DNA of 60,396 nt from a virus (lineage: Duplodnaviria > Caudoviricetes), in the IMG/VR virus record IMGVR_UViG_3300037848_000009, positions 1 to 60,396 of that record. The stretch is one strand, 5' to 3'. A program made the position numbers and the translations under genes. Position 1 is the stretch's first letter. Each line of letters starts with the position of its first letter. Positions 35,357-60,396 of the stretch are shown here, in pieces. Below the pieces are notes generated by a model. The model was not told the origin of the DNA, searched no databases, and saw only the letters and a program-made list of their open reading frames with translations.

Positions 35357-35520
35357 CACTCCCGCTCGCGTGTCGCAATGCCACGCATCGCCCCGCTCAC
35401 CCGGCTCGCGGCATCGTTCACACCCTGCGTGTAGCCGCGTCCGTAGCCAATGTTCCAGCCAGCAACCAGACCAGCGATCAGGACGATGATCAGCACGATG
35501 ATGTAAGGGTCCAGATTCAC
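35356..35520 (-). CDS. Small membrane protein (54 aa, below the ORF-track cutoff)
   Basis: MNLDPYIIVLIIVLIAGLVAGWNIGYGRGY; GTGA overlap with the ATPase stop. Confidence 0.65.
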   Translation of the reverse strand: MNLDPYIIVLIIVLIAGLVAGWNIGYGRGYTQGVNDAASRVSGAMRGIATRERE

Positions 35521-36995
35521 GCGCCCACCTTTCTTTCTTGCAGCGCACCACGCACCACGGCCTGCACCTGCTCGCTGGCTTCCGTGTAGCGCCTTCCGTT
35601 CTTTGCTCCGCTGATTTCACGTGCAATTTCTGCCATACTTGCCCCGTTTGCGAACATATCCAGAATACGGCGTTCTGCTGCAGTATACTCTTTTGCCGTG
35701 GGGTTGCCAGTGCCTTGCCGAGGTAGCGCCGGTTCCAGGGTTTCAGCTTGACTGTGCAGGTCATCTGGCAATAGCCTGGCAATACCCTGGTTGCTTGCGA
35801 GCGGGACCCTGGCAAGGGTGGTCTGTGGCCTTGCGGCGCTGCGCAAGAGTACCACGCCCTGCCCAAGTTGGCGCTCATAGGTGGCAATATCCTTTTTGCT
35901 CATATCGAGTAACTGGACCGCGCTATGCCCGGCGCCGCCAGAATAGTATGCGGTGCGCAGGTTCTCACGGATTTCGCCGCCGGTTTGTAAGGTTTTGGTG
36001 AGCAGGTCTTGCGAACTGGTCACGAGATACAGTCGCACCTTGCGACCCTCCCTGAGTAGGCTTCCCAGCGTGTCCATAGCACCAGGGACGTTGGCAACAA
36101 TGGCTGGCAATTCGTCCACATACGCCACGAGCGGCGCGCCAGGGCGCTGGCCTGCGTTGCGCAGGTCGTAGCGCCGCGTCATTTCATCAGCGAGCCAGCG
36201 AAACAGGTCCTCTATCTGGCCTGCCTTGACTGCCGGTGTCAGGTGCAACCGCTGCGCTATGGCGCGCCAATCTTCCCCGCTCTCGGCATCGTATGCAGCG
36301 AAGTGGGGGTCTGCTATCACACACTGCACATTGCACGCCAATAGCTGAGAGAGCAGCAAGCGGCCCGTGTTACTCTTGCCGCCGCCGGTGGCTCCTACCA
36401 GCCCGGTGTGCATCAGATTTTTGGCGCTGACCGTGATGGGCTGCCCATCGTCTCCAATGGCAAGCAGGATGCTGTGGGGCGTCGGGGTATGGCTGATGCT
36501 TGCCAGGTCAACAGGGCCGGGTAAGGTCGGGGATTGCGCCACATCACCCGGCAATACAGATGCCGCCTCATGCTTCGCGTGCTGTGTATAACTGAGGCTG
36601 TGCGGGACGTGGGGGTGCCGGTTATTGGCATCAGCCACGAGTACCTGTGCTTGCAACCCAAGCTGGCGCATTGCGTAGCGCCGATCCCACTGCACGCCCT
36701 GTGCTGCGTTGATAGCGGCCAGCACCAGACTGTAGCCGACACCTGCCAGGAACAGAAACACGAGCATACCGAATGCCACGCTGCCATAGGTCTGGGCAGC
36801 AGACACAAGCGGCTCGTGTTGTTGCTGCAAAGCATCCCAGCGCTGCGCTTGTTGTAGCCGTAGCTCTGCGTGACCTTGCTCATAGGGTAGCATCGCACTG
36901 CGAGCGGCTACGGCGTCGGGGCTGGTGTAGGTAACGATGCCCCACGCGACCAGGGCAAAAGCAGCGATAGTAATGATAAAGGGGGCAAACTTCAT
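35517..36995 (-). CDS. Membrane-anchored FtsK/HerA-family ATPase with C-terminal HTH
   Basis: Two TM segments, GATGGGKS, YVDEL, EGRK..SSQ. Confidence 0.85.
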   Translation of the reverse strand: MKFAPFIITIAAFALVAWGIVTYTSPDAVAARSAMLPYEQGHAELRLQQAQRWDALQQQHEPLVSAAQTYGSVAFGMLVFLFLAGVGYSLVLAAINAAQGVQWDRRYAMRQLGLQAQVLVADANNRHPHVPHSLSYTQHAKHEAASVLPGDVAQSPTLPGPVDLASISHTPTPHSILLAIGDDGQPITVSAKNLMHTGLVGATGGGKSNTGRLLLSQLLACNVQCVIADPHFAAYDAESGEDWRAIAQRLHLTPAVKAGQIEDLFRWLADEMTRRYDLRNAGQRPGAPLVAYVDELPAIVANVPGAMDTLGSLLREGRKVRLYLVTSSQDLLTKTLQTGGEIRENLRTAYYSGGAGHSAVQLLDMSKKDIATYERQLGQGVVLLRSAARPQTTLARVPLASNQGIARLLPDDLHSQAETLEPALPRQGTGNPTAKEYTAAERRILDMFANGASMAEIAREISGAKNGRRYTEASEQVQAVVRGALQERKVGA

Positions 36996-37023: not shown

Positions 37024-37097
37024 GTTGGCAGGCCAGCGGGGGACAGACCCCCTCGTTATGCCCTGCGTCACCAGGGCGGCCTGCCAACAGTATAGCA
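37024..37097 (-). other. Three-way-junction structure with overlapping extended -10 (TGcTATACT, 37089-37097)
   Basis: GTTGGCAGGCC/GGCCTGCCAAC 11-bp inverted repeat enclosing two hairpins. Confidence 0.6.
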
Positions 37098-37126: not shown

Positions 37127-37765
37127 TTACAGTAAACATTTTGCCTGGTGCTCTGGCAACCAGTAGGGCGGGCGGATACCCATCAGGATGCCTGTTTCAT
37201 CCGGCAATGCTCGCATCTGTTTACCATCGTCGTCATATTCGCTCCAATCTGCGTGCCACGGCTCAATAAGCCAATCCACGCGCCCCCATCCCTGGCTGGT
37301 CTTTTTGCCGATAAACAGCATTGTTCTGAGGAGCGCCGCAATGCGATCCGCATCTCCCACCGCGTACCAGGAGACGAACAGAGCGTGCCGGTAGAACACA
37401 GGCATATGATACGATTTATAGCGCCCCGCCTCAACAAGCACTTTACCACGCCTGTTCTTAAAGTCCACAAGCCCACTGTGTTGATCAAAGCGTTTGTTCC
37501 AATGGTCGGTCCCCTCTGTTACCGTGCCGTGCCAGTGCGCAAAAGAGCACGCATAGTACCAGTGTTCGCCTATACCACGCCGATCAAGTGGCAGATCGAC
37601 CAGGGGCACGTCAAGTAACGCGCCCGAAACCGTGACATCTTGCGGGCCGTATGTTTCACGCATTGCCTGATACAGCAAGATGCCATCCAGGGGCAACGTC
37701 GCATCACTCAATACAGGTGTGCGCAATTTAGCTGTGATGCGAAGCGGCTCTAATCCTCCAGACAT
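37127..37765 (-). CDS. csf3: Type IV CRISPR Cas5-group protein Csf3
   Basis: PLRITAKL..LPLDGIL..YACS..WYAVGD..IGKKTSQGWGRV. Confidence 0.88.
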   Translation of the reverse strand: MSGGLEPLRITAKLRTPVLSDATLPLDGILLYQAMRETYGPQDVTVSGALLDVPLVDLPLDRRGIGEHWYYACSFAHWHGTVTEGTDHWNKRFDQHSGLVDFKNRRGKVLVEAGRYKSYHMPVFYRHALFVSWYAVGDADRIAALLRTMLFIGKKTSQGWGRVDWLIEPWHADWSEYDDDGKQMRALPDETGILMGIRPPYWLPEHQAKCLL

Positions 37766-38397
37766 ATATGTCCCCATCCTTGCGTCGTGTGGCTCCCCAC
37801 GCCGCTATATTCGGCAAAACGTGCCAGTATTGCTATCCATCGTTGCGGTGCCTGCATACGATAGCGAACACGCCCGACAAAACCGTTTAACCAGTGATGG
37901 CGATAGCGTACCCGGCGCGTCTCGCCTGCCAACTCTGTGATTTTGATGTGGTCATACTGGATTTCTGGCACAGCTATATCGGTAATCACCAGCCACCGCC
38001 GCAACACGGCACCAAAAACCACGTTCGGCGCTGGCGAGACGTGACATACACTCTTGCTGCGCACAAAAAAAGGCGACAAAAAGCGTAGCGTTATGTATTG
38101 CTGTGGCTCTGTTGTGTCGATAAGTGATTGATACGACACAGGCGCGCTGCTACGTTGGACTAATGACGATTGATTAAGCGCAGCGCATAGTTCCCCCGTC
38201 AAGGCAGACAGCCAGAGCAATGAGCATCCATCGAGATATGCAGCATAGGGCGGTAGTCCAGTATTATCATGTAGACGTGTTGCCAGGTCGGGCGCGGTCT
38301 GACGAAGGACATGCAACGCTGCATAAAGCGCACCTTCATATTCCGTACATGCTTCCTGGTGGCGCCAGGGCGTGACGTAATGAGCGAGATTACACAT
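37750..38397 (-). CDS. cas6: Cas6-family RAMP endoribonuclease
   Basis: ITLRFLSP, GFVGRVRY, terminal G-loop FAEYSGVGSHTTQGWG. Confidence 0.85.
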   Translation of the reverse strand: MCNLAHYVTPWRHQEACTEYEGALYAALHVLRQTAPDLATRLHDNTGLPPYAAYLDGCSLLWLSALTGELCAALNQSSLVQRSSAPVSYQSLIDTTEPQQYITLRFLSPFFVRSKSVCHVSPAPNVVFGAVLRRWLVITDIAVPEIQYDHIKITELAGETRRVRYRHHWLNGFVGRVRYRMQAPQRWIAILARFAEYSGVGSHTTQGWGHICLED

Positions 38398-39136
38398 ACT
38401 GGCGCACCTCCGGTATTTCGGCAGCAAGTTTATTCCACAGTTCAGGGTAATTTCGCTTCAGCCAGGCATAACGTCCCCACCGGCGTTTCGTCTCGCCTGC
38501 CCAATACGAGACACGCTGGTCATCCTCTGGCATATCCCACATCTTGTCATATGTGCCAGCATACGGCACATTATTACTCACGATATAGGCCCACACATCA
38601 TCATATGTCCAGTGCCCTAATGGTTGGCATTGCCACACGCCGTACTGCCGCGAAAAAAACAGCGCGCCATTGTAGCGCACGCTCTGGCGGCGCCCGTAGC
38701 TCTCTGCTGCCCGGATGCCATACACACAACCGTCATAGCCATATTCGGTAATGAGTGCCCTCACTGGCTGATAGACTGTGCTTTTCATCGTCTGTCGGTC
38801 CAGATCAGCGCCGCCTTCAAGGCCAAATCGTTTCAGTGTTTCAAGAAACGGCTCAGATGTGGGGTAGCGCAAACAATTCGGCGTATTGCCTATCAGGTCC
38901 GATACCTCTGGAAAACAGTTGTCCGCATCCAGGTAAACAGCAGGCACAGCAGGCGCTTGCTCACGCACCAGGTGGAGTACACACACACTATCTTTGCCGC
39001 CGCTGAATGCGATGTAGGGTCGCTCGCAATGTGACAACCAGTTATCAATAATGCCGCGGCTGTATTGGACGCGCTGGCGAAAACCCTTTAAGCGGCTGTG
39101 AGTTTCAAAACGCAGCCGCACAACGTCTGGCATCAT
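38390..39136 (-). CDS. cysH: CysH/PAPS reductase-like accessory protein of type IV-B
   Basis: AFSGGKDS PP-loop, GIRAAES..R, PLGHWT..DVWAYI. Confidence 0.9.
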   Translation of the reverse strand: MMPDVVRLRFETHSRLKGFRQRVQYSRGIIDNWLSHCERPYIAFSGGKDSVCVLHLVREQAPAVPAVYLDADNCFPEVSDLIGNTPNCLRYPTSEPFLETLKRFGLEGGADLDRQTMKSTVYQPVRALITEYGYDGCVYGIRAAESYGRRQSVRYNGALFFSRQYGVWQCQPLGHWTYDDVWAYIVSNNVPYAGTYDKMWDMPEDDQRVSYWAGETKRRWGRYAWLKRNYPELWNKLAAEIPEVRQYV

Positions 39137-40104
39137 TGCATTGCCCCCAGGAACGCACGAATATCATTGCCGTGCTGCTGTAAATGCTGCTGATATTGCG
39201 CACCCAACGGTAGCGATAAAGCATCCCCCTGCACTTCGGTGCGGCTGTCAATGCGCAGCCAGTTGTCGAACTTGACCGCCACTTTGCCTAACCCGACAGC
39301 ACTTTTGCCGCCAATATAGGGGCGCTTGCTGAACTCAACCAGGGTCGTCGCAAACGCCTCAAATTCGACCTCGGACACATCATTCAGTGCAAGTTCCCAA
39401 TAGAAGCGCGTGCCCGCCGCCAGTGTTTCTACGTAGTACATCATCTGCTGATGCTGGCCTGTATCGCGTTGCGGCTCTGTTAACGCGGTCGCCTCCGCCT
39501 TCTCGCGGCGTGTATCATCAAGCAGCTTGCGCGTCTCGCCAGTGAGCAACGGCTGATAATGTTCGTTTTTGGCATCATCTTTGCGCGTGTACATCTCCTC
39601 CTGCAGATACTCCCAGATGGATGTCGTGGCGTGTAACTGATACGCCTCCGGCAACAGGTGGGTAGTCTCCTCGCAGATAGGGATCAGTTTGCCTGTGATT
39701 AACTTCCCCGGCATAATCTGATTGCCCATCCCGCCACCAAAAACGCCCACCAGCGGGATAAGCGAACGCACGCGGCGAGCGGCGTCCACGTCCAAACCGT
39801 GCCCACCACTTTTACTCAGCGAGCCGCCAGAAAACAGGAAATAAAACGCGCTGAGGGGCATGCCAGATACTGTACTATCCTGCTCCACGCCGTAGCCAAG
39901 CTGGCGACACATATGCAGCATGCCAATATCGCGCAACAGGCCGCGCAACCCATTACCGCTAATGACTGGCACATCCTCAACGCTGCCGTTGGGTTGGACG
40001 ATCTTCTCACGGCGTAGCTTCTGGTTGATACCAAACGACTCGCCGCCATTGTGTGTGATACTACTTAGGGCAGTGACCACACCCTCAAAATAATATGTCT
40101 GCAT
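39133..40104 (-). CDS. csf2: Type IV CRISPR Cas7-group backbone Csf2
   Basis: TALSSITH, VPVISGNGLRGLLRD, LFSGG, QMMYYVE, IGGKSAVGLG. Confidence 0.92.
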   Translation of the reverse strand: MQTYYFEGVVTALSSITHNGGESFGINQKLRREKIVQPNGSVEDVPVISGNGLRGLLRDIGMLHMCRQLGYGVEQDSTVSGMPLSAFYFLFSGGSLSKSGGHGLDVDAARRVRSLIPLVGVFGGGMGNQIMPGKLITGKLIPICEETTHLLPEAYQLHATTSIWEYLQEEMYTRKDDAKNEHYQPLLTGETRKLLDDTRREKAEATALTEPQRDTGQHQQMMYYVETLAAGTRFYWELALNDVSEVEFEAFATTLVEFSKRPYIGGKSAVGLGKVAVKFDNWLRIDSRTEVQGDALSLPLGAQYQQHLQQHGNDIRAFLGAMQ

Positions 40105-40472
40105 TAAAAAAGCTCCTCTCCTGTCCGCGCCACTGGCTGTTCAGCTTCTATTGCGTCGCGCCGTTCTTCGTTCATCACGCGCACCAGTAGCACCAGGAGT
40201 GCTGTTTCGTCGCGTAAGGTTTTGAGGATGGCGCGGTCCTGACCACTTGTAAGCACGGTCTGAACGGTTTGCGTGCCGTCTTTGCGTAGCCGAATATCAA
40301 GCCGCCTGCACAGCACATCAAAAAAAGTCGAAAGTTTGCTGGTGTAGGCTGCGCTCTTGATCTGATTCTGAAACTGTTCCCAGATGTTCCTCGCATACTT
40401 GCTCTTGTAACCGTCCGCTATCCCCCGCCACAGGGGATAGAGTAGCTTCTCCGCTATCTCCTGATGCTCCAT
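40104..40472 (-). CDS. cas11: Cas11-like small subunit (type IV-B)
   Basis: 122-aa helical protein between csf1 and csf2; GGAGG RBS. Confidence 0.75.
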   Translation of the reverse strand: MEHQEIAEKLLYPLWRGIADGYKSKYARNIWEQFQNQIKSAAYTSKLSTFFDVLCRRLDIRLRKDGTQTVQTVLTSGQDRAILKTLRDETALLVLLVRVMNEERRDAIEAEQPVARTGEELF

Positions 40473-41112
40473 AGTCTTCCTCCTTCTGTGCCAGAAATAT
40501 GGCGAGTTGGAGCAGTAGCGAGCCGCGCAACGGACTGACCTGCTGCTCTAATGTGTGCCAGCGCTCGATTCCAAACTGGCGTATACGATGCTGCCCATAG
40601 CGCCCCGTTTCGATTTCGGATTTCGTGAAGCCCAAATAGAGGGCGTCTACAAGTTCTTGCGTGGCCTGCCAATGGGGCACATCAGGGCGTGTTGCTTGCT
40701 CTTCAATCTGCCACCAGCCAGGCTGGGCACGAAATATGATATGCTTCTGCCCCGATGTGGCAATGATTGCCACGTCGGCAGTTGGCAGCAATGCTCGCAT
40801 TTGCCGCTTGTCGCCTTTGCTGAGCGGGTGCCAGACGCCTGCCACAACAAAATGGCTATAGTTGCGCATGCGTTGCGGCTTGTCTTTGCCAGTGCGAGCC
40901 TGGAGCAGTTCGGAGGCGTCGTGCACACAGAACTGGCACGCGTGGCACAGGATGGTGCCGGGTCGCAGCTTGTCATGATCGGTGAATGTGTCTTTGACCC
41001 ACCGGGCAAATTCAATGCCCACACCCGGTTGCCCACACATTCGACACACGCCCGATTGCGCGCCTGTCATTGACGGCTCACTGGCAGCCTGATAGATAAG
41101 ATGTGTGCTCAT
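40318..41112 (-). CDS. csf1: Type IV CRISPR large subunit Csf1
   Basis: CRMCG, FTDHD, CHAC zinc finger, SGQKH, GFTKSEIETGRY; 3' end overlaps cas11 by 155 nt. Confidence 0.85.
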   Translation of the reverse strand: MSTHLIYQAASEPSMTGAQSGVCRMCGQPGVGIEFARWVKDTFTDHDKLRPGTILCHACQFCVHDASELLQARTGKDKPQRMRNYSHFVVAGVWHPLSKGDKRQMRALLPTADVAIIATSGQKHIIFRAQPGWWQIEEQATRPDVPHWQATQELVDALYLGFTKSEIETGRYGQHRIRQFGIERWHTLEQQVSPLRGSLLLQLAIFLAQKEEDYGASGDSGEATLSPVAGDSGRLQEQVCEEHLGTVSESDQERSLHQQTFDFF

Positions 41113-41756
41113 AGTCTTTTCGCTCGATTGTACAATGTCTGCCGTTGAACGCCCAATGCCCGCGCGGCGGCTGTCAAATTGCCGTATTCTGCCGTCAAAC
41201 TGTCCAGATAGGCGCGCCCTGGATCGTCTACCGTGTCCATATGCGGCGTGTCATCTGTCAATGCTGGGGTTGACAGGCGTTCAATATGACTTGACATCGC
41301 CTGCATTTGCCGTGCCATCTCCTGCTGCTGCTCTGCGATGTCACGCACAATAATGTACGGGTCGTTGACAACCTGTGTTGTGTCTCGATTGCTGTGCAAA
41401 ACGAGCATCGAAACGAAAAACAGCAGGACCGTAAACGGCGCGCCGTGGAGCAGGGCCAGGGCAATGATGGCCCACGTGGGCAGCGGCATGGCGAACCAGT
41501 CTGGTGAGAGCCGCGCCAGTCCTGCCAGCGTGCCGTAGACCATTTCGATACCCATTGCCAGGGCCGAAATACCAATAGCTAGCTTATGGCGTTCCTGCGG
41601 AATAGGTACCCATCCCAGGCCAATATAGACCCCAACCAGCGACCCGGCAGACAGCAACGCCACCCACCAGGGGAAGATATGCAACGAAAAGTCATAGACC
41701 AAAAACATCGCAACAATAGCCAGCAAGACCATTGCAGAGCGGATGATGAATTGCAT
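41109..41756 (-). CDS. Four-TM membrane protein with C-terminal Fis-type HTH
   Basis: Hydrophobic N-terminal half, coiled coil, GNLTAAARALGVQRQTLYNR. Confidence 0.8.
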   Translation of the reverse strand: MQFIIRSAMVLLAIVAMFLVYDFSLHIFPWWVALLSAGSLVGVYIGLGWVPIPQERHKLAIGISALAMGIEMVYGTLAGLARLSPDWFAMPLPTWAIIALALLHGAPFTVLLFFVSMLVLHSNRDTTQVVNDPYIIVRDIAEQQQEMARQMQAMSSHIERLSTPALTDDTPHMDTVDDPGRAYLDSLTAEYGNLTAAARALGVQRQTLYNRAKRL

Positions 41757-41775: not shown

Positions 41776-41850
41776 ACCCTGCCTTGCCTTGCCCAGCCGA
41801 GCCCAGCCTAGCCCAACCCGGCCCTACCAAGCCTTGCCCAGCCGAGCCCT
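41776..41850 (-). ncRNA. 5-nt periodic (NN-GGY)x15 array C; candidate VIPR-type guide RNA
   Basis: 15 of 15 units read RCC-NN on the plus strand; intergenic. Confidence 0.85.
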
Positions 41851-41860
41851 GAAATGGCGA

Positions 41861-42370
41861 CTATTCGCCGTCCGGTAATTCGCGGCGGCGCATATCCAGA
41901 CGAAACTGCATATCCATTGCCTTGGTCAGTGTGTCCATATGTTGCCGTCGCTCTTCGGTAGTAAGTTGGCTCATATCAACGTGCTGAATGCGCGCCAGTC
42001 CTTTGCCGACTTCATTCTTGATACGTCGGTTCATGTCGCGTAATGCGCGTGCTGCCTGCTCTGAAGGCCGAATGACGAAGTAACTACCGCGTTGATCGGA
42101 TATTAAATCCATTTGCTCTTGCTGCAGCAATGCCTCTTTGAATGCCGTCATATTTTGCAAGAGTGCCAGGTCGTAATCCTGGAGTTCCTTGTGTGTGTAG
42201 CGGCGGCTTTCATCAGGCGGAGTCAATCCAAACGCCTCCGCAAACCATTCACGAGGGATCAAATCGCCATAGGTGAACCCGGCACGCACGAAGGTGCGCA
42301 ACGCCTCTTTCCATGGCGGGTATAATTCCAAATCTTCTATCATATCTTCATGCTCGTGGTTGTCACTCAT
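41861..42370 (-). CDS. Partner protein coupled to the RAMP-like gene
   Basis: ATGA overlap at 42367-42370; 169 aa; enclosed by the arrays. Confidence 0.75.
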   Translation of the reverse strand: MSDNHEHEDMIEDLELYPPWKEALRTFVRAGFTYGDLIPREWFAEAFGLTPPDESRRYTHKELQDYDLALLQNMTAFKEALLQQEQMDLISDQRGSYFVIRPSEQAARALRDMNRRIKNEVGKGLARIQHVDMSQLTTEERRQHMDTLTKAMDMQFRLDMRRRELPDGE

Positions 42371-42975
42371 GCGATACTCCATTCTGCTACACGAAACTTG
42401 CCGAATGTACCGCCGGATTTGCCGGGTCGATAATCCCCGATGCCAACCAGTTGCCCCGCAATCTCAGCGCATTGCCTCAGGTCGTTCGCATTGATCTGTT
42501 CGGGGAAGTATTCCAGTGTAAAGGTCAGCGACCAGGGCGGCGCAAACACCGGACGAGTGCGAAGGACGCGCCCGCCGGTTGCGGTTGGCTTGACCATCCG
42601 CACATCAACAAACGGTTCTTGTTCAAACAGCTTTGCAGGCTCACGAGGGCCATTATAGACCAGCGAAACAGCTTCTTCGGAGACAGTTACCGCAGTCTCA
42701 ATCGCCTTGCCTTTCTTGATCTTGCGCCCACCTTCCACAATCGATTTGCGGACGTTGCGACCCGGCATATAAACGCCCGTGTCCTTGCTGTAATAAATAC
42801 CGCCCAGGAATTCAATCTTGCTCATTTCCTGGATATCGGCATCGGTTTTGGTGCGCTTGCTGCTGATCTCTTTCAGCATACGCGCATACTCGTTCATCGG
42901 GTTTGCCAATCGATCATTGTGCATCATCAGTGGCGTTGCACCGCTGATCGTGACGTGAATGTACTTGAGTTCCAT
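42367..42975 (-). CDS. Stand-alone RAMP/Cas7-like protein (Vipr-like), 202 aa
   Basis: VTISGATPLMMH first strand, YMPGRNVRKSI helix, RTRPVF..WSLTF, G-rich loop GQLVGIGDYRP..GTFGKF; AGAAAGGA RBS. Confidence 0.8.
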   Translation of the reverse strand: MELKYIHVTISGATPLMMHNDRLANPMNEYARMLKEISSKRTKTDADIQEMSKIEFLGGIYYSKDTGVYMPGRNVRKSIVEGGRKIKKGKAIETAVTVSEEAVSLVYNGPREPAKLFEQEPFVDVRMVKPTATGGRVLRTRPVFAPPWSLTFTLEYFPEQINANDLRQCAEIAGQLVGIGDYRPGKSGGTFGKFRVAEWSIA

Positions 42976-42995: not shown

Positions 42996-43100
42996 ACCTC
43001 GCCTTGCCGCGCCACGCCCCGCCATGCCCTGCTGTACCTCGCCTTGCCCTGCCTAGCCCAACCACACCACGCCGTGCATCGCCATGCCGAGCCTTGCCCT
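42996..43100 (-). ncRNA. 5-nt periodic (NN-GGY)x21 array B; candidate VIPR-type guide RNA
   Basis: 19 of 21 units read RCC-NN; phase unbroken. Confidence 0.85.
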
Positions 43101-43159
43101 GGAATGGTCGCCACTATGGGCGTCGTGTGGGCAGTTTGCGAACATGCCCAGGTTCCCAA

Positions 43160-43214
43160 GCCCTGCCGCGCCCTGCCGCACCTAGTCCTGCCCTGCCGCG
43201 CCCCGCCTTGCCTT
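43160..43214 (-). ncRNA. 5-nt periodic (NN-GGY)x11 array A; candidate VIPR-type guide RNA
   Basis: 10 of 11 units read RCC-NN; begins about 11 nt after the -10 box. Confidence 0.8.
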
Positions 43215-43225
43215 GAAGTGTCGTT

Positions 43226-43254
43226 ATTATAGCACACCTTCACACGCAATACAA
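43226..43254 (-). promoter_or_regulatory. Sigma70 promoter driving arrays, RAMP gene and cas operon
   Basis: TTGTAT-17-TATAAT with extended TG. Confidence 0.8.
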
Positions 43255-45043: not shown

Positions 45044-45069
45044 TTTAAGTAGATATGAGGTAAGATAAA

Positions 45070-45104
45070 GCCCCTGGTGAAATGCCAGGGGCCTTGTTTT
45101 ATTC
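45070..45104. terminator. Terminator between convergent genes
   Basis: GCCCCTGG-tgaaatg-CCAGGGGC followed by a T-rich tract. Confidence 0.7.
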
Positions 45105-50517: not shown

Positions 50518-53121
50518 TCACTCTCCTTGCTGCCGTTTCAATGCGGCGTTACGTGCATCTTCTTCAGTCGCGTAGGCAATGCCATCGATGTAGGTCATCT
50601 GCCCATCTGCGCTTTGCTCACAGACATACCAACCCTCGCTGTCATTCCCGTAGATCACCATCGGTGGGGTTACGGGTACTTCTGGTACTTCGGGTACTTT
50701 CAAGGACACTTCACTTTCACTCTGTACATGCGCGCGCGCGTACATGCGCGCGTTACTGTGTATAGAAGCACCCGAAGTACCCGTAATATCGACGGGAATA
50801 AGGCGATACATATTGCCTTTTGTGGCTGTGTTTTTTGCCTTCTCGATGCGGTATTGTGTGCCTTCAATGGTATACACTGCATCAACCTGGCTGTTGAGCA
50901 AGTACCCGAGAGACTGAAGGCGCTTACGCTCGGTGTCGCCCTTGACCGGCAGGTCTATGTCGCGTATTGCTTCACAGACCTGCCCGGCAGACACCCATGC
51001 ATTACCGAACTCCTCATGCCAGAGTGTAAAAAATGCCCGCCACATATTAATGCGCTCGTTGTCACTTTCAATCCTCTGGATCGCATTTTCTAGAAATGTG
51101 TCAATACCGCACGATGCAAGGATTTTGCTCATCACTGCGCAGTATTTCGTGAATGAACCAAGTCGGGGAGTTGTTGCACGAACGGTACTGGATAGGCTAT
51201 ACTGAATAATGGTCAGGCATGCCTGGATTAATTGCACACGATGGTCATATACCCACTGCACAATGTCGAAGTGTCGAAAATTGTTCCGCAGCGCTGGTTG
51301 TTCACAATCTGCTACCAGACGAATAGGCACAACACGGCGCGGCATATCACCGGATACAGATACATTATTCCCGGTTGCAATCCAGATGGTATACACTGGT
51401 ACATCCGCAATACGCCCGGTGCCTATCACGCGATCTGACCAGTGCTGTGCTGTGATGGCCTTTTCGAGTTGCGCAGAATTGATATAACGTACGTTGTCAT
51501 AGGTGATCGAGAGCGGCATATGCTCAAGCGCGCTGGTCAAGCTTTTGCGTACCTCCTCATCATTATCAGCTAATGAGGACAACGGGGCGGGCGCGTTTGT
51601 CCAGATAATATGAAACAGGTCGTTCAGTAGTCCTTTGCCTGTACCCTCGCGGGCCGCTTCAATCAGATGTAATGGCGTCGCGCCACGAATAGCGCCGCGC
51701 ACAAACGGCAGGAGTAGCAGCGCCAGCGCGTTAGCATAGTCGGCATGTGTTTTAAATGGGAAATCAACGAGCATATCATCAATCAGCCTCATCGCCTCAC
51801 TCACGTGCTGATCGGAGCATTCCCCAGGAATATCGATATCAATTTCGGGCTTATAATAATAGCCGCTTTGTTGATCGTAGCCCGGTATTTTGACAATATG
51901 CCCCTGCGGCGCAACCACAGGAATAGCAATAATCCGCTCTATGGCAGGCAGATCGGGCATACCATAGCGCATACTGTCAACGATAGACGCAGGCGGCGCA
52001 ACAAAGCGGATTTTTGTATTCTTTCCCGTGCCCACGTCCTTCGGAAACAACGCGACATTGCCCAGCAGATACCGCATATTCCTACGGTCAATCGACTCGA
52101 TCTTGTTGTCAACAATGCGATAGAGCTCACTCCCCATTGTGTATAGTTGCGGGCCGTATTCGCTCCCGATCAGCGCGCTCCACGCCGCTGGCACCAGTTC
52201 TGCTATATCCTCATTGGTAACATCAATAACCGGCCTGTCGTCGCCCTGATCGCCATTGCTATGGCTGTTGTCGTCGCCCTGCGGTTCGTCGCGTGCCTGT
52301 TCGGGCACGCGGTATCTGCTGTGGTTATCCTCTGGTAACCCGGCATACTCAGGCGTGCCACCGCTGCGAGCGCTGGCGATGGTGCCGGAAATCTCCTTTT
52401 CGGGCAGTCCTTTTTGTCGCGCCATTGTTTCGATTTCAGTAAAAACGCTCTCGGGTAATCGGCCTGCCAAAACAAATTCATTCACGCGCCGCGCAACCTT
52501 GAATAATGTGGCGTTGCGCGTGCCGTTCTGGCAGCGCGCCAGTTCTGTCAGTTCTGCATTGAGCGCCGTTTCTGCGTATAAATCTTCAGTATTGGCACTG
52601 CCTTTCCTCCGGGGCGCAGGTTGCTTCTGTCGCTCTCGTTCTGGCTTGCGCGTCACCCACGCGGGCAGCGGTGCCAGGTCGATATCATTCTCCCAGGCAT
52701 ACACGACGCCAGAGGGATGCACCGATGGCGCAGCGACAATATAGCCGCCATCCCCGCGTACATCCAACCCTGTTATGCCGCGTATTGCAGCGCGATTGCG
52801 TATCTCGCCGCCAGGGTGCTGATACACTCGGTGCTTGCCGTGCGCGGTGGCCTGGGTCAGCGTGGGTGCGTCGCCTTGCAGGGTGACATATTCTTCGGCC
52901 TCTGGATTATCGGTATCAACAACCACAATGCCGGATACTGCGCCAGTTGCAATGCCGATGTTATAACGCGGATTGCGCTCCCACCAGGCGCGTATCTGGT
53001 CGGGGTCGGCGGTGGCGTCTTTGAAGCCCTGTCCTGTGGCAGGTATTTTGCCGCGTGGCTTCAGAGGAAAAACACGCCATCCACGCGCGGCGTAGGCGAG
53101 TGCTGAGTCTAGGAAAGTCAT
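50518..53121 (-). CDS. Bifunctional primase-polymerase fused to a helicase-like ATPase
   Basis: GWRVFPL, NIGIATG..VVDTD, H, DVRGDGGYIVAAPS; GTGKG, YDN, ATGNN. Confidence 0.92.
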   Translation of the reverse strand: MTFLDSALAYAARGWRVFPLKPRGKIPATGQGFKDATADPDQIRAWWERNPRYNIGIATGAVSGIVVVDTDNPEAEEYVTLQGDAPTLTQATAHGKHRVYQHPGGEIRNRAAIRGITGLDVRGDGGYIVAAPSVHPSGVVYAWENDIDLAPLPAWVTRKPERERQKQPAPRRKGSANTEDLYAETALNAELTELARCQNGTRNATLFKVARRVNEFVLAGRLPESVFTEIETMARQKGLPEKEISGTIASARSGGTPEYAGLPEDNHSRYRVPEQARDEPQGDDNSHSNGDQGDDRPVIDVTNEDIAELVPAAWSALIGSEYGPQLYTMGSELYRIVDNKIESIDRRNMRYLLGNVALFPKDVGTGKNTKIRFVAPPASIVDSMRYGMPDLPAIERIIAIPVVAPQGHIVKIPGYDQQSGYYYKPEIDIDIPGECSDQHVSEAMRLIDDMLVDFPFKTHADYANALALLLLPFVRGAIRGATPLHLIEAAREGTGKGLLNDLFHIIWTNAPAPLSSLADNDEEVRKSLTSALEHMPLSITYDNVRYINSAQLEKAITAQHWSDRVIGTGRIADVPVYTIWIATGNNVSVSGDMPRRVVPIRLVADCEQPALRNNFRHFDIVQWVYDHRVQLIQACLTIIQYSLSSTVRATTPRLGSFTKYCAVMSKILASCGIDTFLENAIQRIESDNERINMWRAFFTLWHEEFGNAWVSAGQVCEAIRDIDLPVKGDTERKRLQSLGYLLNSQVDAVYTIEGTQYRIEKAKNTATKGNMYRLIPVDITGTSGASIHSNARMYARAHVQSESEVSLKVPEVPEVPVTPPMVIYGNDSEGWYVCEQSADGQMTYIDGIAYATEEDARNAALKRQQGE
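50671..50786. repeat. Inverted CGGGTACTT iterons inside the primase 3' end; putative origin
   Basis: 3 direct copies at 50673-50699, 2 inverted at 50766-50783, CATGCGCGCG core. Confidence 0.75.
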
Positions 53122-53129
53122 AGGTGCTC

Positions 53130-55304
53130 CTATGCAATATCAGGACTGCTCAATGCTATCAGGCGCTCTGCAAGTGCCGTTCGGCGGCTATCCTCTCTGA
53201 TATTGTTCACTGCCTTTTGCACTGCTGCTCTCTCGCCGATGATAATACCTAACTGCTTCCCCCTGGTAACAGCGGTATAAAGTAATCGCCGCGTAAGCAT
53301 AAACTGATGCACGCTATGCGCTACCACAATTGCGCAGGGGTACTCGCTGCCTTGCGCTTTGTGAACGGTCACAGCATAGCCGTGCGTAGCCGTCAATTCA
53401 TCTAGTGGTATGCCGGTTGACACATCGAGATCAATAAGTGTTTTCCTGTTATCCTGGTAAATGCTCTCAACGCGGCATTCCTCGCCATTAACCAGGCCAC
53501 GATCCAGGTTGTTGGCAGTCCAGATCAATTTATCGCCTTCACGCAAGATTCTATCAAACCAGCGCACTTCATTCTTATCGAATGATTGTTCGTTTAACAC
53601 TGCCTGAAGTTCAACGTTTAACGCCTCGATACCACAGGCGTGCTTGTATTGCGGCGCAATCACCGTGATCTCACCAGGCTCTATACTGTATTTCTCAGGT
53701 ATCGCGTTGGTGATAAGTCGCAATATATGCTCTGCTACTTTCTCAGGCTGTGTTACCTCAAAGAGAAACATATCACTATCAGGATCGTTATCCAGGTCGG
53801 GCATCGTACCATCATTGATACTATGGCTTGTCGATATGATCTTACTTTCGCCAGCCTGCCGTAGCACTTGCGTGAGCCGCGCCATGGGCACATCGGCACT
53901 GATCAGATCAAACAGGACGCGCCCCGGCCCTACCGATGGCAACTGGTTGTCATCGCCAACAAAGATCAGATGGCACTGATCGGGCAATGCATTGACCAGC
54001 CACTCTGCAACCTGGGTATCAAGCATCGATGCCTCATCAACAATGACCACATCAGGATCAGGGTCATTTTTCATCAACCAATTGACCAGACGATGTACTG
54101 TTGTGGCCTGCATACCGCTCGTTTCACTCAGTCGCTTTGCTGCCTTGCCCGTAGGAGCGCAGAGGTCAATACGTTTTACACCTGCACGATGCAGCGCGTC
54201 AAGCACCAGGCGTTGTACTGTCGATTTGCCAACACCGGCACCTCCAGCGAGTACACTTACCTTATTCTCCAGGAGAAACCGCACTGCCTCTTGCTGCTCA
54301 TCAGTCGGCTTGAATGTGGCATTATCAAAGATGGCTTGCCAGTCGAGCGTTTTGATATTACTGGCAATGTGGCTATGACCTGTCATTAGGCGATGCAGAC
54401 CATGCGCAAGTTGCTGTTCTGTTCGTAGCATCTCAGGGGTATAGCAGCGCTGCTGCTCATCGATCACGAGCAACGCATTACTAGCGCGCTCCTGGTTCAT
54501 CAGGGCATCCATGATCTTATGGCTCGGCAATCCGAGCATATCACTTGCCGCTGCCAGTACAGTATCTTTGCCCGTCCATGTATGCCCGTTGCTTTCCTCT
54601 TTGCTGGCAATATGCTTACACGCAGCTTCGAGCCGTCGCGGGTCATCTGCCGCAACACCCATGGCCTCTGCTATGGCGTCGGCTGTTTTCCAGCCAACGC
54701 GCGGCGCATTCATCAGGTAATAGGGGTCGTCGTTTGCAATTTGCCCCAGCGTTGCGCCCTGGCCTCTCGCCCATTCATTGAGGCGAGCGATCATCTTTGT
54801 GCCAACACCTGCAACGCCAATCAGCAACCGCTCAGTATCCTTCTCTGCTACGCTGCATTGCCACTCAGTAAGAAATTGCGCTGCTGTGGATTGGTCAATG
54901 CCGATTGCAGTCAACTGCTCGGGCGTGGCAGTATCCAACACGCCACGCAATTCCGGGCCGTATTGAGTGACGATCTTGTTTGCGTCTTCGAACTCCAGTG
55001 CATAGGTATCAGTAAGATACCGGAGCACTCCCAGGCGATCACGCGGCATCGTTTCTACCACGCCAGAGAGTTCGTAGCTATCGCCATAGCGAGGGTGCGT
55101 CTTAAGGGCGCCGTAGGCTTCATAGCTGCGCCCTAGATCGCAATTTGGAAAGGTGCCCTTAAAATCAATAATACGATTGGTTAGATCGCCTTCCTCTACC
55201 CGTGCCCTGCCGATCACAAAACCATCGCGCTCGAACTTGATTGAGGTAACAGAGAACACTTTCAGATGCACCTGCTGCTGTTGCTGTGTCTTTGTGGTTG
55301 CCAT
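53130..55304 (-). CDS. recD2: RecD2-like SF1B helicase
   Basis: HhH repeats, GGAGVGKS, APTGKAA, DEASM, GDDNQLPSVG, HKAQGSEY, YTAVTR. Confidence 0.93.
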   Translation of the reverse strand: MATTKTQQQQQVHLKVFSVTSIKFERDGFVIGRARVEEGDLTNRIIDFKGTFPNCDLGRSYEAYGALKTHPRYGDSYELSGVVETMPRDRLGVLRYLTDTYALEFEDANKIVTQYGPELRGVLDTATPEQLTAIGIDQSTAAQFLTEWQCSVAEKDTERLLIGVAGVGTKMIARLNEWARGQGATLGQIANDDPYYLMNAPRVGWKTADAIAEAMGVAADDPRRLEAACKHIASKEESNGHTWTGKDTVLAAASDMLGLPSHKIMDALMNQERASNALLVIDEQQRCYTPEMLRTEQQLAHGLHRLMTGHSHIASNIKTLDWQAIFDNATFKPTDEQQEAVRFLLENKVSVLAGGAGVGKSTVQRLVLDALHRAGVKRIDLCAPTGKAAKRLSETSGMQATTVHRLVNWLMKNDPDPDVVIVDEASMLDTQVAEWLVNALPDQCHLIFVGDDNQLPSVGPGRVLFDLISADVPMARLTQVLRQAGESKIISTSHSINDGTMPDLDNDPDSDMFLFEVTQPEKVAEHILRLITNAIPEKYSIEPGEITVIAPQYKHACGIEALNVELQAVLNEQSFDKNEVRWFDRILREGDKLIWTANNLDRGLVNGEECRVESIYQDNRKTLIDLDVSTGIPLDELTATHGYAVTVHKAQGSEYPCAIVVAHSVHQFMLTRRLLYTAVTRGKQLGIIIGERAAVQKAVNNIREDSRRTALAERLIALSSPDIA

Positions 55305-55374
55305 AGTTGCCCCATGCAATACAAGTGCCTGCAATAAATACAATATGTTTATTGCAGGCACATACACTTAAAAC

Positions 55375-56514
55375 TTAAAACGGGATTTTGCCTTCTGTCT
55401 GCTCAACTCCGAACTTTGCCGCGTCATACGGCTCGAAGCGCTTGACGACCAGCTTATCATCTTCGTAATACCCCACTACCAGAAGGCTATCGCCTTCAGT
55501 GATTTCTGCCAGAGCCTTCTGTACCACGCCTTTAAAAAAGATGGTACAGAATTGCTCTTGTTCGTCTGGGGTATAGAGCTTGAAGCCCATCCAGGTTTTT
55601 TTATCATTCACTTTCTGGTCGGTGACAATGCCGATCAGCGCTACTTCTTCTTTGCCGTTGCCGCCTGTGGCTTGCTGTGCGGGCTTCTGCGCGCCGCCTC
55701 CCTCGCTACTGCCACCACTGCCGGCATTCTCGCTCTCAGCGGGGCCCTCAGTTCCGTTATTGAAGGCGTTTGCCCACTTCTGGATGGCAGAAAAATCAAC
55801 CTCGGCCTTGCGCTTGATATCCTCGTTGGTGAGGTAGTTTGCCTTAATGTAACTGGCATCTGGCTGTGCAGGATGCATCGAGACAATAGGCACGACCAGA
55901 GAGGTGCTTTCTTTGCCGAAAGCCGTCTGCTCGCCTGGGCCAAGCCTCCAGACGATTTCATGCAACTCGACAGGGTCGGGGTGCTTTTCCCGATCTACAA
56001 TGCTGTCAGCAAACTGGCACACCCTCGTGTGATCTGCCAGTGCTTTGAGGATATAATCCACCATCAAACTGCGAGCGCCAATCTTGAACGGCTGCATGTA
56101 GCCGCGCTCGGCCAGCAGCTTGACATAGCCGATAACACCAACAAGCGCACGTTCGCCCTGGGGCCAGCGGATACCGATCCCTGCTTGCGCTGCTTTGTCT
56201 TTCATGCGGAGTAACGCGCTTGTTGCTGTTGCGGGTGTACCCATCGTGACCGGTAGGAAATCCAGGTTTTCGCCCAGGTTCCAGTGCTTTTTGATAATCG
56301 GCTCTGTACCTTGCCGGGGGTGTTGGGCTTCGATAGTCAAGTAACCCGCTTCTTCCATTGCCTTGTCGAGTGCGTGATCTTCGCCTGCTGTGACGAAAAA
56401 CCCCACGTACTCACTAAAGCGTTCCTTTGAGCTCTTGCGCGCCCGCATCAAGCCGTTGCCCCATCCGATGGCGGGGTAATCTGTCTGCACATTATCAATT
56501 CGTCCGATTCCCAT
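55375..56514 (-). CDS. Putative ssDNA-binding/recombination protein
   Basis: C-terminal OB-fold-like domain ending in IPF; in replication module. Confidence 0.5.
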   Translation of the reverse strand: MGIGRIDNVQTDYPAIGWGNGLMRARKSSKERFSEYVGFFVTAGEDHALDKAMEEAGYLTIEAQHPRQGTEPIIKKHWNLGENLDFLPVTMGTPATATSALLRMKDKAAQAGIGIRWPQGERALVGVIGYVKLLAERGYMQPFKIGARSLMVDYILKALADHTRVCQFADSIVDREKHPDPVELHEIVWRLGPGEQTAFGKESTSLVVPIVSMHPAQPDASYIKANYLTNEDIKRKAEVDFSAIQKWANAFNNGTEGPAESENAGSGGSSEGGGAQKPAQQATGGNGKEEVALIGIVTDQKVNDKKTWMGFKLYTPDEQEQFCTIFFKGVVQKALAEITEGDSLLVVGYYEDDKLVVKRFEPYDAAKFGVEQTEGKIPF

Positions 56515-59134: not shown

Positions 59135-60097
59135 ATGACCAAAGCCCCGATTATCGCGCACGAAGATGATCTGAGCTTTGAATTGGCACTGGCGGCGTGG
59201 CGTAGCAACAGACACACGCGCGAGCGCGAAACGACCGCCCGCAGTGAACAGAGCGGATACGTTGCCAGCGTGCAGGCAGTATACGAACAGATGCTCGCCA
59301 TTTGCACAAACGACCAGCAGCGCGATCTGCTGGCGGACGAAATGGAACGCTTCCGGCAGAACTACCTGAAGCACTACACGGCGCTGTTGAGTGCAATAGG
59401 CCGCTTCAACAGCGTGTTTTTTGACTGGTACGAACTGCCGGAGCACAACCAGAAGCGGCTTAACAAAAAAGTATACCGCAGGCGACGTAACAAAGCACAC
59501 CGCAGGCGGGAAGAGTACCTGCGTTGGCGGTACAAGGCAGAAGCCAGCATCCGCGAGAAGATTCTCGACGCACGCACACCAGAAGAAAAAGAAGAAGCTA
59601 CGTGGGAGGCATTGCGCGCCGAAATCGTCCGCAGGCTTCATGTTATCACAGCTGTAGATACCAATAATGCACCGTATCGCCGCAACGACTTTGTTCACTC
59701 GATAGCGTTTATAGTTGAGCGACTGGCGAAGATCGGCAAAGTATCGCTAGTAGATCGCGCCGTGGCCCTGGTAGCTGATTACAACGCCAGCCACAACAAG
59801 CCCGCCATCAGTAAACGCCACAAGTTCTGGACATACCCGGACGTGGCCCGCGCCGTTGACGCAGCGTGGCAGGCAGCTACTGTAGACGGCGCAGTGATTG
59901 CAGAAGGCGACGGTTGGCGCATCGAGACAGCGCCAGAGGATGACCGCGTGCGCATCTATTTTGACAGCAAGCCCGATGAAACGATCCGTAGCGAGCTCAA
60001 AGGCACTGGTTGGAAATGGGCACCATCGGCGGGCGCGTGGCAGCATAAGCTCACCAACAAAGCGATCGCCAGTGCGAAGGTGTTGATGGACTGCTAA
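59135..60097 (+). CDS. Hypothetical protein (possibly related to DUF3560/polyvalent-protein domains)
   Basis: AGAAAGGA RBS; RVRIYFDSKP..GWKWAPS..AWQ; family call tentative. Confidence 0.7.
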   Translation: MTKAPIIAHEDDLSFELALAAWRSNRHTRERETTARSEQSGYVASVQAVYEQMLAICTNDQQRDLLADEMERFRQNYLKHYTALLSAIGRFNSVFFDWYELPEHNQKRLNKKVYRRRRNKAHRRREEYLRWRYKAEASIREKILDARTPEEKEEATWEALRAEIVRRLHVITAVDTNNAPYRRNDFVHSIAFIVERLAKIGKVSLVDRAVALVADYNASHNKPAISKRHKFWTYPDVARAVDAAWQAATVDGAVIAEGDGWRIETAPEDDRVRIYFDSKPDETIRSELKGTGWKWAPSAGAWQHKLTNKAIASAKVLMDC

Positions 60098-60183
60098 GAT
60101 ACGCCGGGGCGCGGCTCTGCCTGTGTTACAGGTCCGTACAGTTTCAGGGGCCGCGCCTGACATAATCAGAAAGGGGAAGCAGA

Positions 60184-60396
60184 ATGAGTGTGTACGACAC
60201 AGAACAGCAGTTGCGTGAAATCCTTAAAGCGCACAAGCTCTGGCTCGATGATCCGGACCAGGCTGGGGCAGCCCGTGCCAACCTGCGTGGAGCCGACCTG
60301 AGTCGGGCTGACTTGAGCGGGAATGACTTGAGCGGGGCTGATTTGCGTGGAGCCGACCTGAGCTTAGCCAACCTGCGTGGAGCCGACCTGAGCTTA
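60184..60396 (+). CDS. 3'-partial pentapeptide-repeat protein (variant of 686..1336)
   Basis: [29 protein letters not shown]; runs off the window. Confidence 0.8.

Follow-up and report, generated by a model that had tools for sequence, protein, structure and literature searches.

The DNA considered here is IMG/VR record IMGVR_UViG_3300037848_000009, a genome of 60,396 bases from a virus of the class Caudoviricetes, which was analysed in full and which we call the window. On its minus strand, between positions 41112 and 37127, lies a cassette of six cas genes in the order csf1-cas11-csf2-cysH-like-cas6-csf3. A second module, built around a different RNA-guided protein, adjoins it upstream. Our results show that the cassette belongs with high confidence to CRISPR-Cas type IV-B, that its Cas6 is well conserved and probably active, and that the phage genome around it contains no CRISPR array.

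A preliminary description, made from the sequence alone, had proposed six genes with overlapping ends, and searches with PADLOC, Pfam and NCBIfam profiles find all of them where it had put them (Table 1). Its assignment of the cassette to a phage-borne type IV-B system also agrees with typing by hidden Markov models: cas11 and a cysH-like gene are present, and a helicase and an array are not. Adjoining genes of the cassette overlap by 1–28 nucleotides. The exception is the 3′ end of csf1, which shares 155 nucleotides (40318-40472) with the 5′ third of cas11 in a different frame. The translation of the cysH-like gene has an intact SGGKDS PP-loop. Neither the six cassette genes nor the scanned flanking open reading frames (ORFs) include a DinG or RecD helicase, and the sole RecD/Dda-like helicase of the genome is found 12 kb away (53130-55367) among replication genes.

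The presence of Cas6 makes this cassette an atypical member of type IV-B and not a non-member, because the paper defining the subtype itself admits exceptions: in its available text, 12 IV-B loci with Cas6 are counted (Pinilla-Redondo 2020; PMC7038947). The cassette is a further case of a rare but already recorded form of IV-B, not a new kind.

Table 1. Features of the block from the promoter-like site upstream of vipr to the RNA structure downstream of csf3. Numbers after profile names are E values.
Feature	Position	Strand	Basis and remarks
Promoter-like extended -10 box TGCTATAAT	43226..43234	-	Motif scan; heads the whole block
vrRNA tract 1, 12 NNGGY units	43155..43214	-	Its tail, reaching about 43101, contains a GGGCA...TGCCC hairpin
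vrRNA tract 2, 21 NNGGY units	42996..43100	-	Continues directly into the vipr ribosome-binding site and start codon (ATG)
vipr (202-residue single-domain RAMP protein with glycine-rich loop)	42367..42975	-	Fold and family co-occurrence
vap-like accessory gene (173 residues)	41861..42382	-	Follows vipr, as in the vipr-vap operon of the VIPR preprint
vrRNA tract 3, 15 NNGGY units	41776..41850	-	Ends in GGTTTACAGAAAGGA, as tract 2 does; the next gene's ATG follows
Membrane protein with C-terminal Fis-type helix-turn-helix	41109..41756	-	PF02954 HTH_8 1e-4; N-terminal half hydrophobic
csf1 (Cas8-like large subunit, zinc-finger cysteines)	40318..41112	-	PADLOC Csf1_0_IV 4.5e-16; TIGR03114 weak, 0.019
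cas11 (small subunit)	40104..40472	-	PADLOC Cas11_1_IV 5.6e-28, full-length match
csf2 (Cas7 backbone subunit)	39133..40104	-	PADLOC Csf2_0_IV 7.2e-81; TIGR03115 8.4e-21; PF03787
cysH-like (phosphoadenosine phosphosulfate reductase / PP-loop ATP pyrophosphatase family; IV-B signature accessory)	38390..39136	-	PF01507 1.4e-17
cas6 (compact Cas6 endoribonuclease family, 215 residues)	37750..38397	-	PF10040 7.9e-15, above cut-off
csf3 (Cas5)	37127..37777	-	PADLOC Csf3_0_IV 1.9e-46
Promoter-like TGCTATACT	37097-37089	-	Motif scan; just after the csf3 stop
Three-way-junction RNA structure	37088-37024	-	Folding energy -61.2 kcal/mol (z = -4.9); none of 200 shuffles reaches this stability

That the fifth gene encodes a Cas6, as had been proposed, is upheld by its Pfam match, by the quality of its structural model, by the folds closest to that model and by its conserved residues. 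We place its start at the ATG at 38397; the longest ORF begins with a TTG at 38427. The match to TIGR01877 (1.3e-11) lies under the curated cut-off of that profile, and the PADLOC model for type IV-D Cas6 matches weakly (3.3e-5). An exhaustive HMMER search with the protein returned 607 proteins at E values up to 0.001. About 25 of these (209–245 residues; full-length representatives counted at 50% clustering) align with the phage protein from end to end. Ordinary Cas6 proteins of 250–300 residues match its C-terminal half only. Eight positions are invariant in the alignment of the 25 compact proteins (P109, P122, G175, L191, G199, G201, G207 and G209) and six more, including His43 of an LHD motif, are nearly so. 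The phage Cas6 keeps all eight and all six. The invariant glycines 199, 201, 207 and 209 fall in a glycine-rich loop, GVGSHTTQGWG, at the C-terminus.

An AlphaFold2 model based on the same alignment is predicted with high reliability (predicted local distance difference test, pLDDT, 96; predicted template-modelling score, pTM, 0.92). Its best Foldseek match is TTHA0078 of Thermus thermophilus (TtCas6A; 4c8y; E 8.5e-17, TM 0.78), followed by the H37A mutant 4c97 and by TTHB231 (TtCas6B). All of the top 10 matches are Cas6 chains, the tenth being a type IV-A Cas6 (6njy). A profile of the compact family matches the 4c8y chain with an E value of 8.2e-27, and in that match His43 falls on the segment EVHDQ. 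In the model, His43 stands at the end of helix 36-44, ahead of strand 51-56. Given a presumed numbering offset of 4 residues, it is likely equivalent to the catalytic His37 of TtCas6A; for Arg22 of TtCas6A no counterpart was identified in the phage protein.

Selection seems to have kept the gene intact. Of the 17 cas6 variants listed from contigs of three other samples, 14 are synonymous when taken singly, which argues for purifying selection, and an orthologue with 85% identity is encoded on another contig. The phage Cas6 is genuine and probably catalytically competent.

A complete genome fixes what the phage itself can supply to such an enzyme. We treat the phage genome as complete, with a unit of about 59.5 kb. 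CheckV gives a completeness of 100%, and the genome encodes a large terminase and a primase-polymerase besides the RecD/Dda-like helicase. The ends of the record overlap imperfectly: positions 1-484 match 59473-59956 at 92–95% identity and positions 644-892 match 60142-60390 at 76% identity. A pentapeptide-repeat gene spans the record ends. The diverged end copies are consistent with a mixed-strain assembly of a genome that is circular or terminally redundant, or else with two paralogous pentapeptide-repeat genes. Near-identical DNA has been seen only in metagenome runs from tidal flats; 20 runs with matching DNA were found, none of them RNA, and the contigs we mapped are all DNA.

Within the window, Tandem Repeats Finder, a direct-repeat search and a scan for two-copy mini-arrays found no CRISPR-type array. 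What the repeat scans did find were coding pentapeptide repeats, the vrRNA tracts of the upstream module and short chance pairs. No Pfam match to Cas1 or Cas2 occurs in the six frames of the window. The claim that an apparently complete genome lacks an array, cas1 and cas2 therefore stands. A scan of the window for a stem-loop followed by ATTG gave three matches, all in coding regions of the plus strand, and the array and solitary-repeat scans found no cognate repeat RNA for Cas6 there. The window also contains no Rfam family at gathering thresholds and no tRNAs.

Cas6 is rare among the relatives of the cassette. Searches based on Csf2 yielded 90 related loci, 4 of them viral, 6 from metagenome-assembled genomes (MAGs) of four phyla and 80 metagenomic; the 64 loci that have csf2, cysH and csf3 are counted here as complete cassettes. 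Three of the 64 contain Cas6 (L005, L006 and L021 in our numbering), and profiles of compact and of ordinary Cas6 agree on this. The gene order in these three is csf2-cas6-cysH-csf3, compared to csf2-cysH-cas6-csf3 in the phage. Their Cas6 proteins are 30–35% identical to that of the phage and their Csf2 proteins 62–63%. A blastn search of the cassette against the phage collection gave no match, and neither did Cas6-based locus searches of viral and genome contigs. The overlap between csf1 and cas11, on the other hand, is common: it is at least 60 nucleotides long in 68 of 84 related loci. The shared stretch may genuinely be translated in both frames, or it may be a frameshift site from which a Csf1-Cas11 fusion results.

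Upstream of the cassette, from 43234 to 41776 on the minus strand, lies a module that the preliminary description had passed over; it holds the one phage-encoded guide-RNA array present. Its repeats are NNGGY tracts, in which GGC or GGT alternate with two variable bases, 0.65–2.1 kb upstream of csf1 (23 pattern matches against 0 expected). A preprint of June 2026 (bioRxiv 10.64898/2026.04.26.720920) describes, in its available text, a system called VIPR, with types I–VII. It consists of Vipr, an ancestral RAMP protein of about 20 kDa, of the accessory gene vap, and of vrRNAs with 9–16 YNNGG repeats and a structured tail. According to the same text, VIPR reads double-stranded DNA by a one-nucleotide-skip code and represses competing phages. 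Set against this published description, the upstream module is well supported as a VIPR system.

Several observations carry this identification. The AlphaFold2 model of the phage Vipr has a pLDDT of 90.8, and its best folds in the PDB are the Cas7 subunits Csm3 and Cmr4 (E 1.7e-6, TM 0.56). In its glycine-rich C-terminal loop G174, G178 and G192 are invariant and G180 is nearly so. No Pfam or PADLOC family matches Vipr or the vap-like protein. The pattern (GGCNN)9 alone retrieved at least 120 viral loci, and our counts of VIPR loci refer to the 120 that were listed. The Vipr-family profile matches 85 of these, always beside tracts, and homologues of the vap-like gene lie beside vipr in three (L210, L111 and L215). 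The layout of tract, ribosome-binding site and vipr ATG recurs in L110, L114 and L158. The tail motif of tract 1 recurs after tracts in L114, L210 and L215, with base changes that preserve the stem. In four further loci (L196, L115, L185 and L120) the tails after the tracts contain GGTTCGA(C/A)(T/C)CC flanked by a stem, which resembles the T-arm of a tRNA; such tails could recruit tRNA-processing enzymes to free the vrRNAs.

The TGCTATAAT site at the head of the module presumably acts as the promoter of the block. Motifs of the same type precede gene blocks at 1829, 13805, 46529 and 57713 on the plus strand and at 37097 and 35205 on the minus strand; a scan for consensus sigma-70 promoters and terminators showed no excess over shuffles. 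Folding of the leader 43225-42960 gave no stable structure (z = -0.01). A search for vrRNA targets under skip rules 0–3 in 1.97 Mb, including the window, returned nothing above shuffled-order and reversed controls, and the perfect matches under skip rule 3 were the tracts themselves. In contigs of runs X1–X4 from other samples, the tract at 41803-41833 is joined to the tracts at 42997-43124, skipping the 1.2–1.3 kb that hold vipr and the vap-like gene and with extra GCCNN units between. Either the tracts and VIPR genes vary or recombine among strains, or these joints are an artefact of assembly at repeats.

What, then, could Cas6 do in a phage that has no array? The preliminary description took its presence to imply a defined RNA substrate, either hijacked host crRNA or a non-coding RNA of the phage, which is a reasonable expectation. 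The explanation we put forward, and only tentatively, is that Cas6 cuts CRISPR transcripts that arise elsewhere in the infected cell, and so feeds CRISPR RNAs (crRNAs) into the Csf complex or sequesters them there. Csf1, Cas11, Csf2 and Csf3 would build a Cascade-like filament on RNA. Cas6 would be an active hairpin-specific endoribonuclease of the TtCas6A kind, cutting repeat transcripts that come from the host or from a co-resident element, and the crRNAs would be handed to the Csf complex or held in it. The cysH-like PP-loop enzyme would act on whatever the complex binds. The purpose of such a system could be competition between mobile elements or the blunting of host immunity. Next to it, the VIPR module would repress competing phages through its GGY/NN guide RNAs, as in the published mechanism. 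The three steps that we infer here are catalysis by Cas6, a foreign CRISPR transcript as its substrate and entry of the product into the Csf complex. The literature offers some precedent, as far as the available texts go: it has been proposed that IV-B complexes take up crRNAs of other systems (PMC7038947, PMC8175902), and the structure of a mycobacterial IV-B complex is a Cas7-Cas11 filament on RNA (PMC8175902). The gene for TtCas6A, too, lies apart from any CRISPR locus, and its product cleaves repeats in trans.

A number of observations weigh against the use of foreign transcripts. According to the available text of a review (PMC8175902), the complex in the sole biochemical study of IV-B bound heterogeneous RNA and not the co-expressed crRNAs of a type I-E system, and IV-B is said to anticorrelate with other CRISPR systems of the host (Pinilla-Redondo et al.; PMC7038947). 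Cas6 is missing from 61 of the 64 related complete cassettes, hence the Csf complex of this clade has no general need of it. The six MAG bins with related contigs span four phyla and do not pin down a host. Cas6 and arrays are present in two of these MAGs, and none of their 29 and 59 spacers (88) matches the window; the lone weak spacer match is to L021 (25 nucleotides with 3 mismatches, E 0.26). The pairing of His43 with His37 relies on a presumed four-residue tag offset.

Arrays occur near some of the related cassettes. L021 has five 29-nucleotide repeats at a spacing of 61–63 nucleotides, along with degenerate copies. This array lies 4.3 kb downstream of csf3, which means that this Cas6 clade can occur with arrays. 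However, the cas6 gene of L021 is split by a frame change, and the array starts 240 nucleotides after a TnpB/IS605-OrfB-like ORF of 416 residues, so that it may belong to the TnpB-like gene and not to Cas6. In L062, four repeats of 38–40 nucleotides (533-1195) directly follow a 129-residue fragment similar to the TnpB N-terminus and lie 8 kb upstream of the cassette; the 21 kb examined of this locus contain no Cas6. No array is present in the L005 record (56 kb, 78% complete) or in L006 (13 kb). Slid over the window, the L021 repeat scores 19 of 29 at best, which is the shuffle maximum, and the best scores of the L021 and L062 repeats over the window, L005 and L006 all equal shuffle maxima. 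A link between the compact Cas6 clade and arrays is possible and remains ambiguous. As side observations on L021 (7875-9680, 3700-4394), the RuvC motifs of the TnpB-like ORF look altered by eye, and an ORF with HAD-like and SpoU-methyltransferase-like parts lies between cysH and csf3.

One could also argue that Cas6 has no specific substrate at all. It could be left over from an ancestor that bore an array and be retained only for the time being, or serve as a non-catalytic RNA-binding or capping subunit, with the Csf complex working on non-CRISPR RNA. The heterogeneous RNA bound by the Mycobacterium complex (PMC8175902, available text) would suit this idea, as would the scattered occurrence of Cas6, in 3 of 64 related complete cassettes and at two different positions. 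The L021 copy of cas6 is frame-shifted, and neither the phage nor the L005 record has an array. Other observations speak against it. The residues conserved in the subfamily are all intact in the phage protein, including His43 and the glycine-rich loop; 14 of the 17 listed variants are synonymous; the 85%-identical orthologue exists elsewhere; and the roughly 25 full-length representatives amount to a maintained family. We consider a leftover or structural Cas6 rather unlikely.

Alternatively, the substrate could be a non-CRISPR RNA of the phage itself; once processed by Cas6, this RNA would nucleate the Csf complex or guide it. It might be the VIPR precursor, cut for example at the tail hairpin of vrRNA1, or the three-way junction just downstream of csf3. 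The three tracts share their strand and a single upstream promoter-like site with the cassette, and no terminator signal above chance separates the tracts from the csf3 stop. Furthermore, vrRNA2 and vrRNA3 continue straight into mRNAs, and because both do so some endonuclease must release them. The tail hairpin of vrRNA1 is conserved, and the fold at 37088-37024 stands out for its stability. In a second IV-B locus, L027, csf1 is also preceded by a GGC tract and a weak Vipr-like ORF.

Yet the wider comparison gives no sign that VIPR and Cas6 depend on each other. None of the 120 listed VIPR loci, as far as their DNA was examined, has Cas6, csf genes or cysH, and VIPR relatives with the same tail hairpin do without Cas6. 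Conversely, the Vipr profile matches none of the 90 IV-B loci, a strict scan for tracts is passed by this phage only, and the three related cassettes that do have Cas6 (L005, L006 and L021) have no tracts. The Cas7 backbone has a period of 6 nucleotides in the available text of the preprint (bioRxiv 10.64898/2026.04.26.720920), the tracts one of 5. The three-way junction belongs to no Rfam family and has no match in the other loci. It precedes an FtsK/HerA-like gene (35517-36995), and small indels occur in its loops in other samples. A phage RNA as the substrate of Cas6 is, in our view, clearly unlikely.

The third place to look for a guide is the strain population. In contigs of runs X2, X3 and X4, which are about 96–97% identical to the phage over the cas genes, 695 letters replace the 8 bases 37749-37756 (junction 37748/37757), between the cas6 stop and the body of csf3. 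The X4 contig is 4905 nucleotides long and covers 37149-41176 of the window. The net insert is 687 nucleotides, that is 229 codons in frame. The Csf3 of these siblings (P0178) is 97% identical to that of the phage over 94% of its length and has another N-terminus (the first 9 codons or so) with a start of its own. The start of the phage Csf3 in turn resembles native Csf3 starts, for example that of P0180; among the 120 listed of 268 matches, no Csf3-like protein starts as the phage Csf3 does. Two related cassettes carry csf3 genes in tandem (L003, 12119-13423; L059, 10998-12280), with copies 657–665 nucleotides apart. Because of the in-frame length, the csf3 starts and these tandem relatives, the insert would suit a second paralogue of csf3, or some other gene, that the phage has lost by recombination. 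The simplest reading is that the phage csf3 is an in-frame fusion that arose when one gene, possibly an additional csf3, was lost.

The preliminary description had allowed for a mini-array that it might have missed. There is none in the window, and the only space left for one is in the 695 sibling bases between cas6 and csf3. That the system has an array of its own, in the strain population or degenerate in the window, would have a precedent in the two-repeat mini-arrays of Fuxiviridae IV-B loci (PMC10541130, available text), but it is highly improbable given an insert that keeps the frame, csf3 starts on both sides that look genuine, tandem csf3 copies in relatives, a likeness to the L021 repeat no better than in shuffles and no non-coding unit of stem-loop plus ATTG.

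We regard the 6.1-kb block from 43234 to 37127 as two separate RAMP-based RNA-guided modules arranged head to tail, and take them to be independent conflict modules that share an accessory region. They could instead form a single system, in which the VIPR transcript supplies the RNA for type IV-B: Cas6 would cut the precursor of vrRNA and mRNA, the Csf filament would assemble on GGY/NN RNA, or both. Tract 3 lies directly before the gene for the membrane and helix-turn-helix protein, whose stop overlaps the csf1 start by 4 nucleotides. In L027, the GGC tract is 2.4 kb upstream of csf1 and is preceded by the weak Vipr-like ORF (hhalign 69%, E 4.4e-5). However, VIPR and IV-B occur together only in this phage and possibly in L027, which is also the only one with a tract among the 27 IV-B loci that have at least 3 kb upstream of csf1. 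Searches with the leaders in other loci found nothing beyond the tract similarity to L027, and type IV, Csf and CysH go unmentioned in the main text of the preprint (bioRxiv 10.64898/2026.04.26.720920) as far as it is available. A single system is therefore a very doubtful proposition. If it were true, the RNA partner of IV-B would be a non-CRISPR tandem-repeat guide and the locus a living link between VIPR and CRISPR effectors.

Compared to type IV-B as known (Makarova et al.; PMC7038947, available text), the phage cassette has in common the four effectors and a cysH-like gene, the lack of DinG or RecD, of adaptation genes and of an array, and its location on a mobile element. It differs by the addition of Cas6 and by its carrier, which is a phage of about 60 kb and not a plasmid. 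With T. thermophilus Cas6A (TTHA0078; 4c8y, 4c8z, 4c97) the phage Cas6 shares the glycine-rich loop, a histidine in the aligned segment and the lack of an adjacent array. In contrast to TtCas6A, to which it is 26–27% identical, it is about 25 residues shorter and encoded inside a cas operon. Type IV-D and the other RecD-associated type IV systems have a related Cas7 and a Cas6 as well, whereas the phage cassette has no RecD helicase in or beside the locus and no array, and does have a cysH-like gene.

A virus family that combines IV-B with a mini-array is already in print, namely the Fuxiviridae, viruses of Bathyarchaeia (PMC10541130). Both their loci and ours are virus-borne, have a cysH-like gene and lack an adaptation module. 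The Fuxiviridae locus has a mini-array of two repeats and, as far as the available text goes, no reported Cas6; the phage has Cas6 and no array. The phage host is presumably bacterial. The upstream module resembles VIPR as described in the preprint (bioRxiv 10.64898/2026.04.26.720920, available text) in its RAMP gene of about 20 kDa, the second small gene, the flanking YNNGG tracts, a putatively structured 3′ tail and the phage carrier. One of its tracts, with 21 units, is longer than the 9–16 units described there.

The function of type IV-B and the RNA that it binds have been open since the subtype was defined, and most IV-B loci lack an array as well as a processing enzyme. A conserved and probably active Cas6 in a complete genome makes the question of the IV-B RNA directly testable. 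If Cas6 does borrow host crRNAs, this would be a clear case of a phage that uses the immune memory of its host or serves as a crRNA sponge. Should there be no specific binding, the view of IV-B as a machine working on non-guide RNA would gain weight. With VIPR in the same transcription block, crosstalk between two RAMP-based systems can be tested too. The siblings that differ at the junction of cas6 and csf3 and in the vrRNA tracts offer natural genetic comparisons.

A few minor features lie elsewhere in the data. Summed contig depths differ between the cassette and its flanks, a difference on which we base no firm conclusion. Inverted sets of triple 9-mers (CGGGTACTT), which resemble iterons or operators, occur at 1554-1674, near the genome end, and at 50667-50788, just downstream of the stop of the primase-polymerase gene (50518). 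A common hairpin motif with a 7-bp stem is found three times (1355-1383, 45066-45094 and 56018-56046); two of these hairpins separate convergent genes and probably serve as bidirectional terminators.

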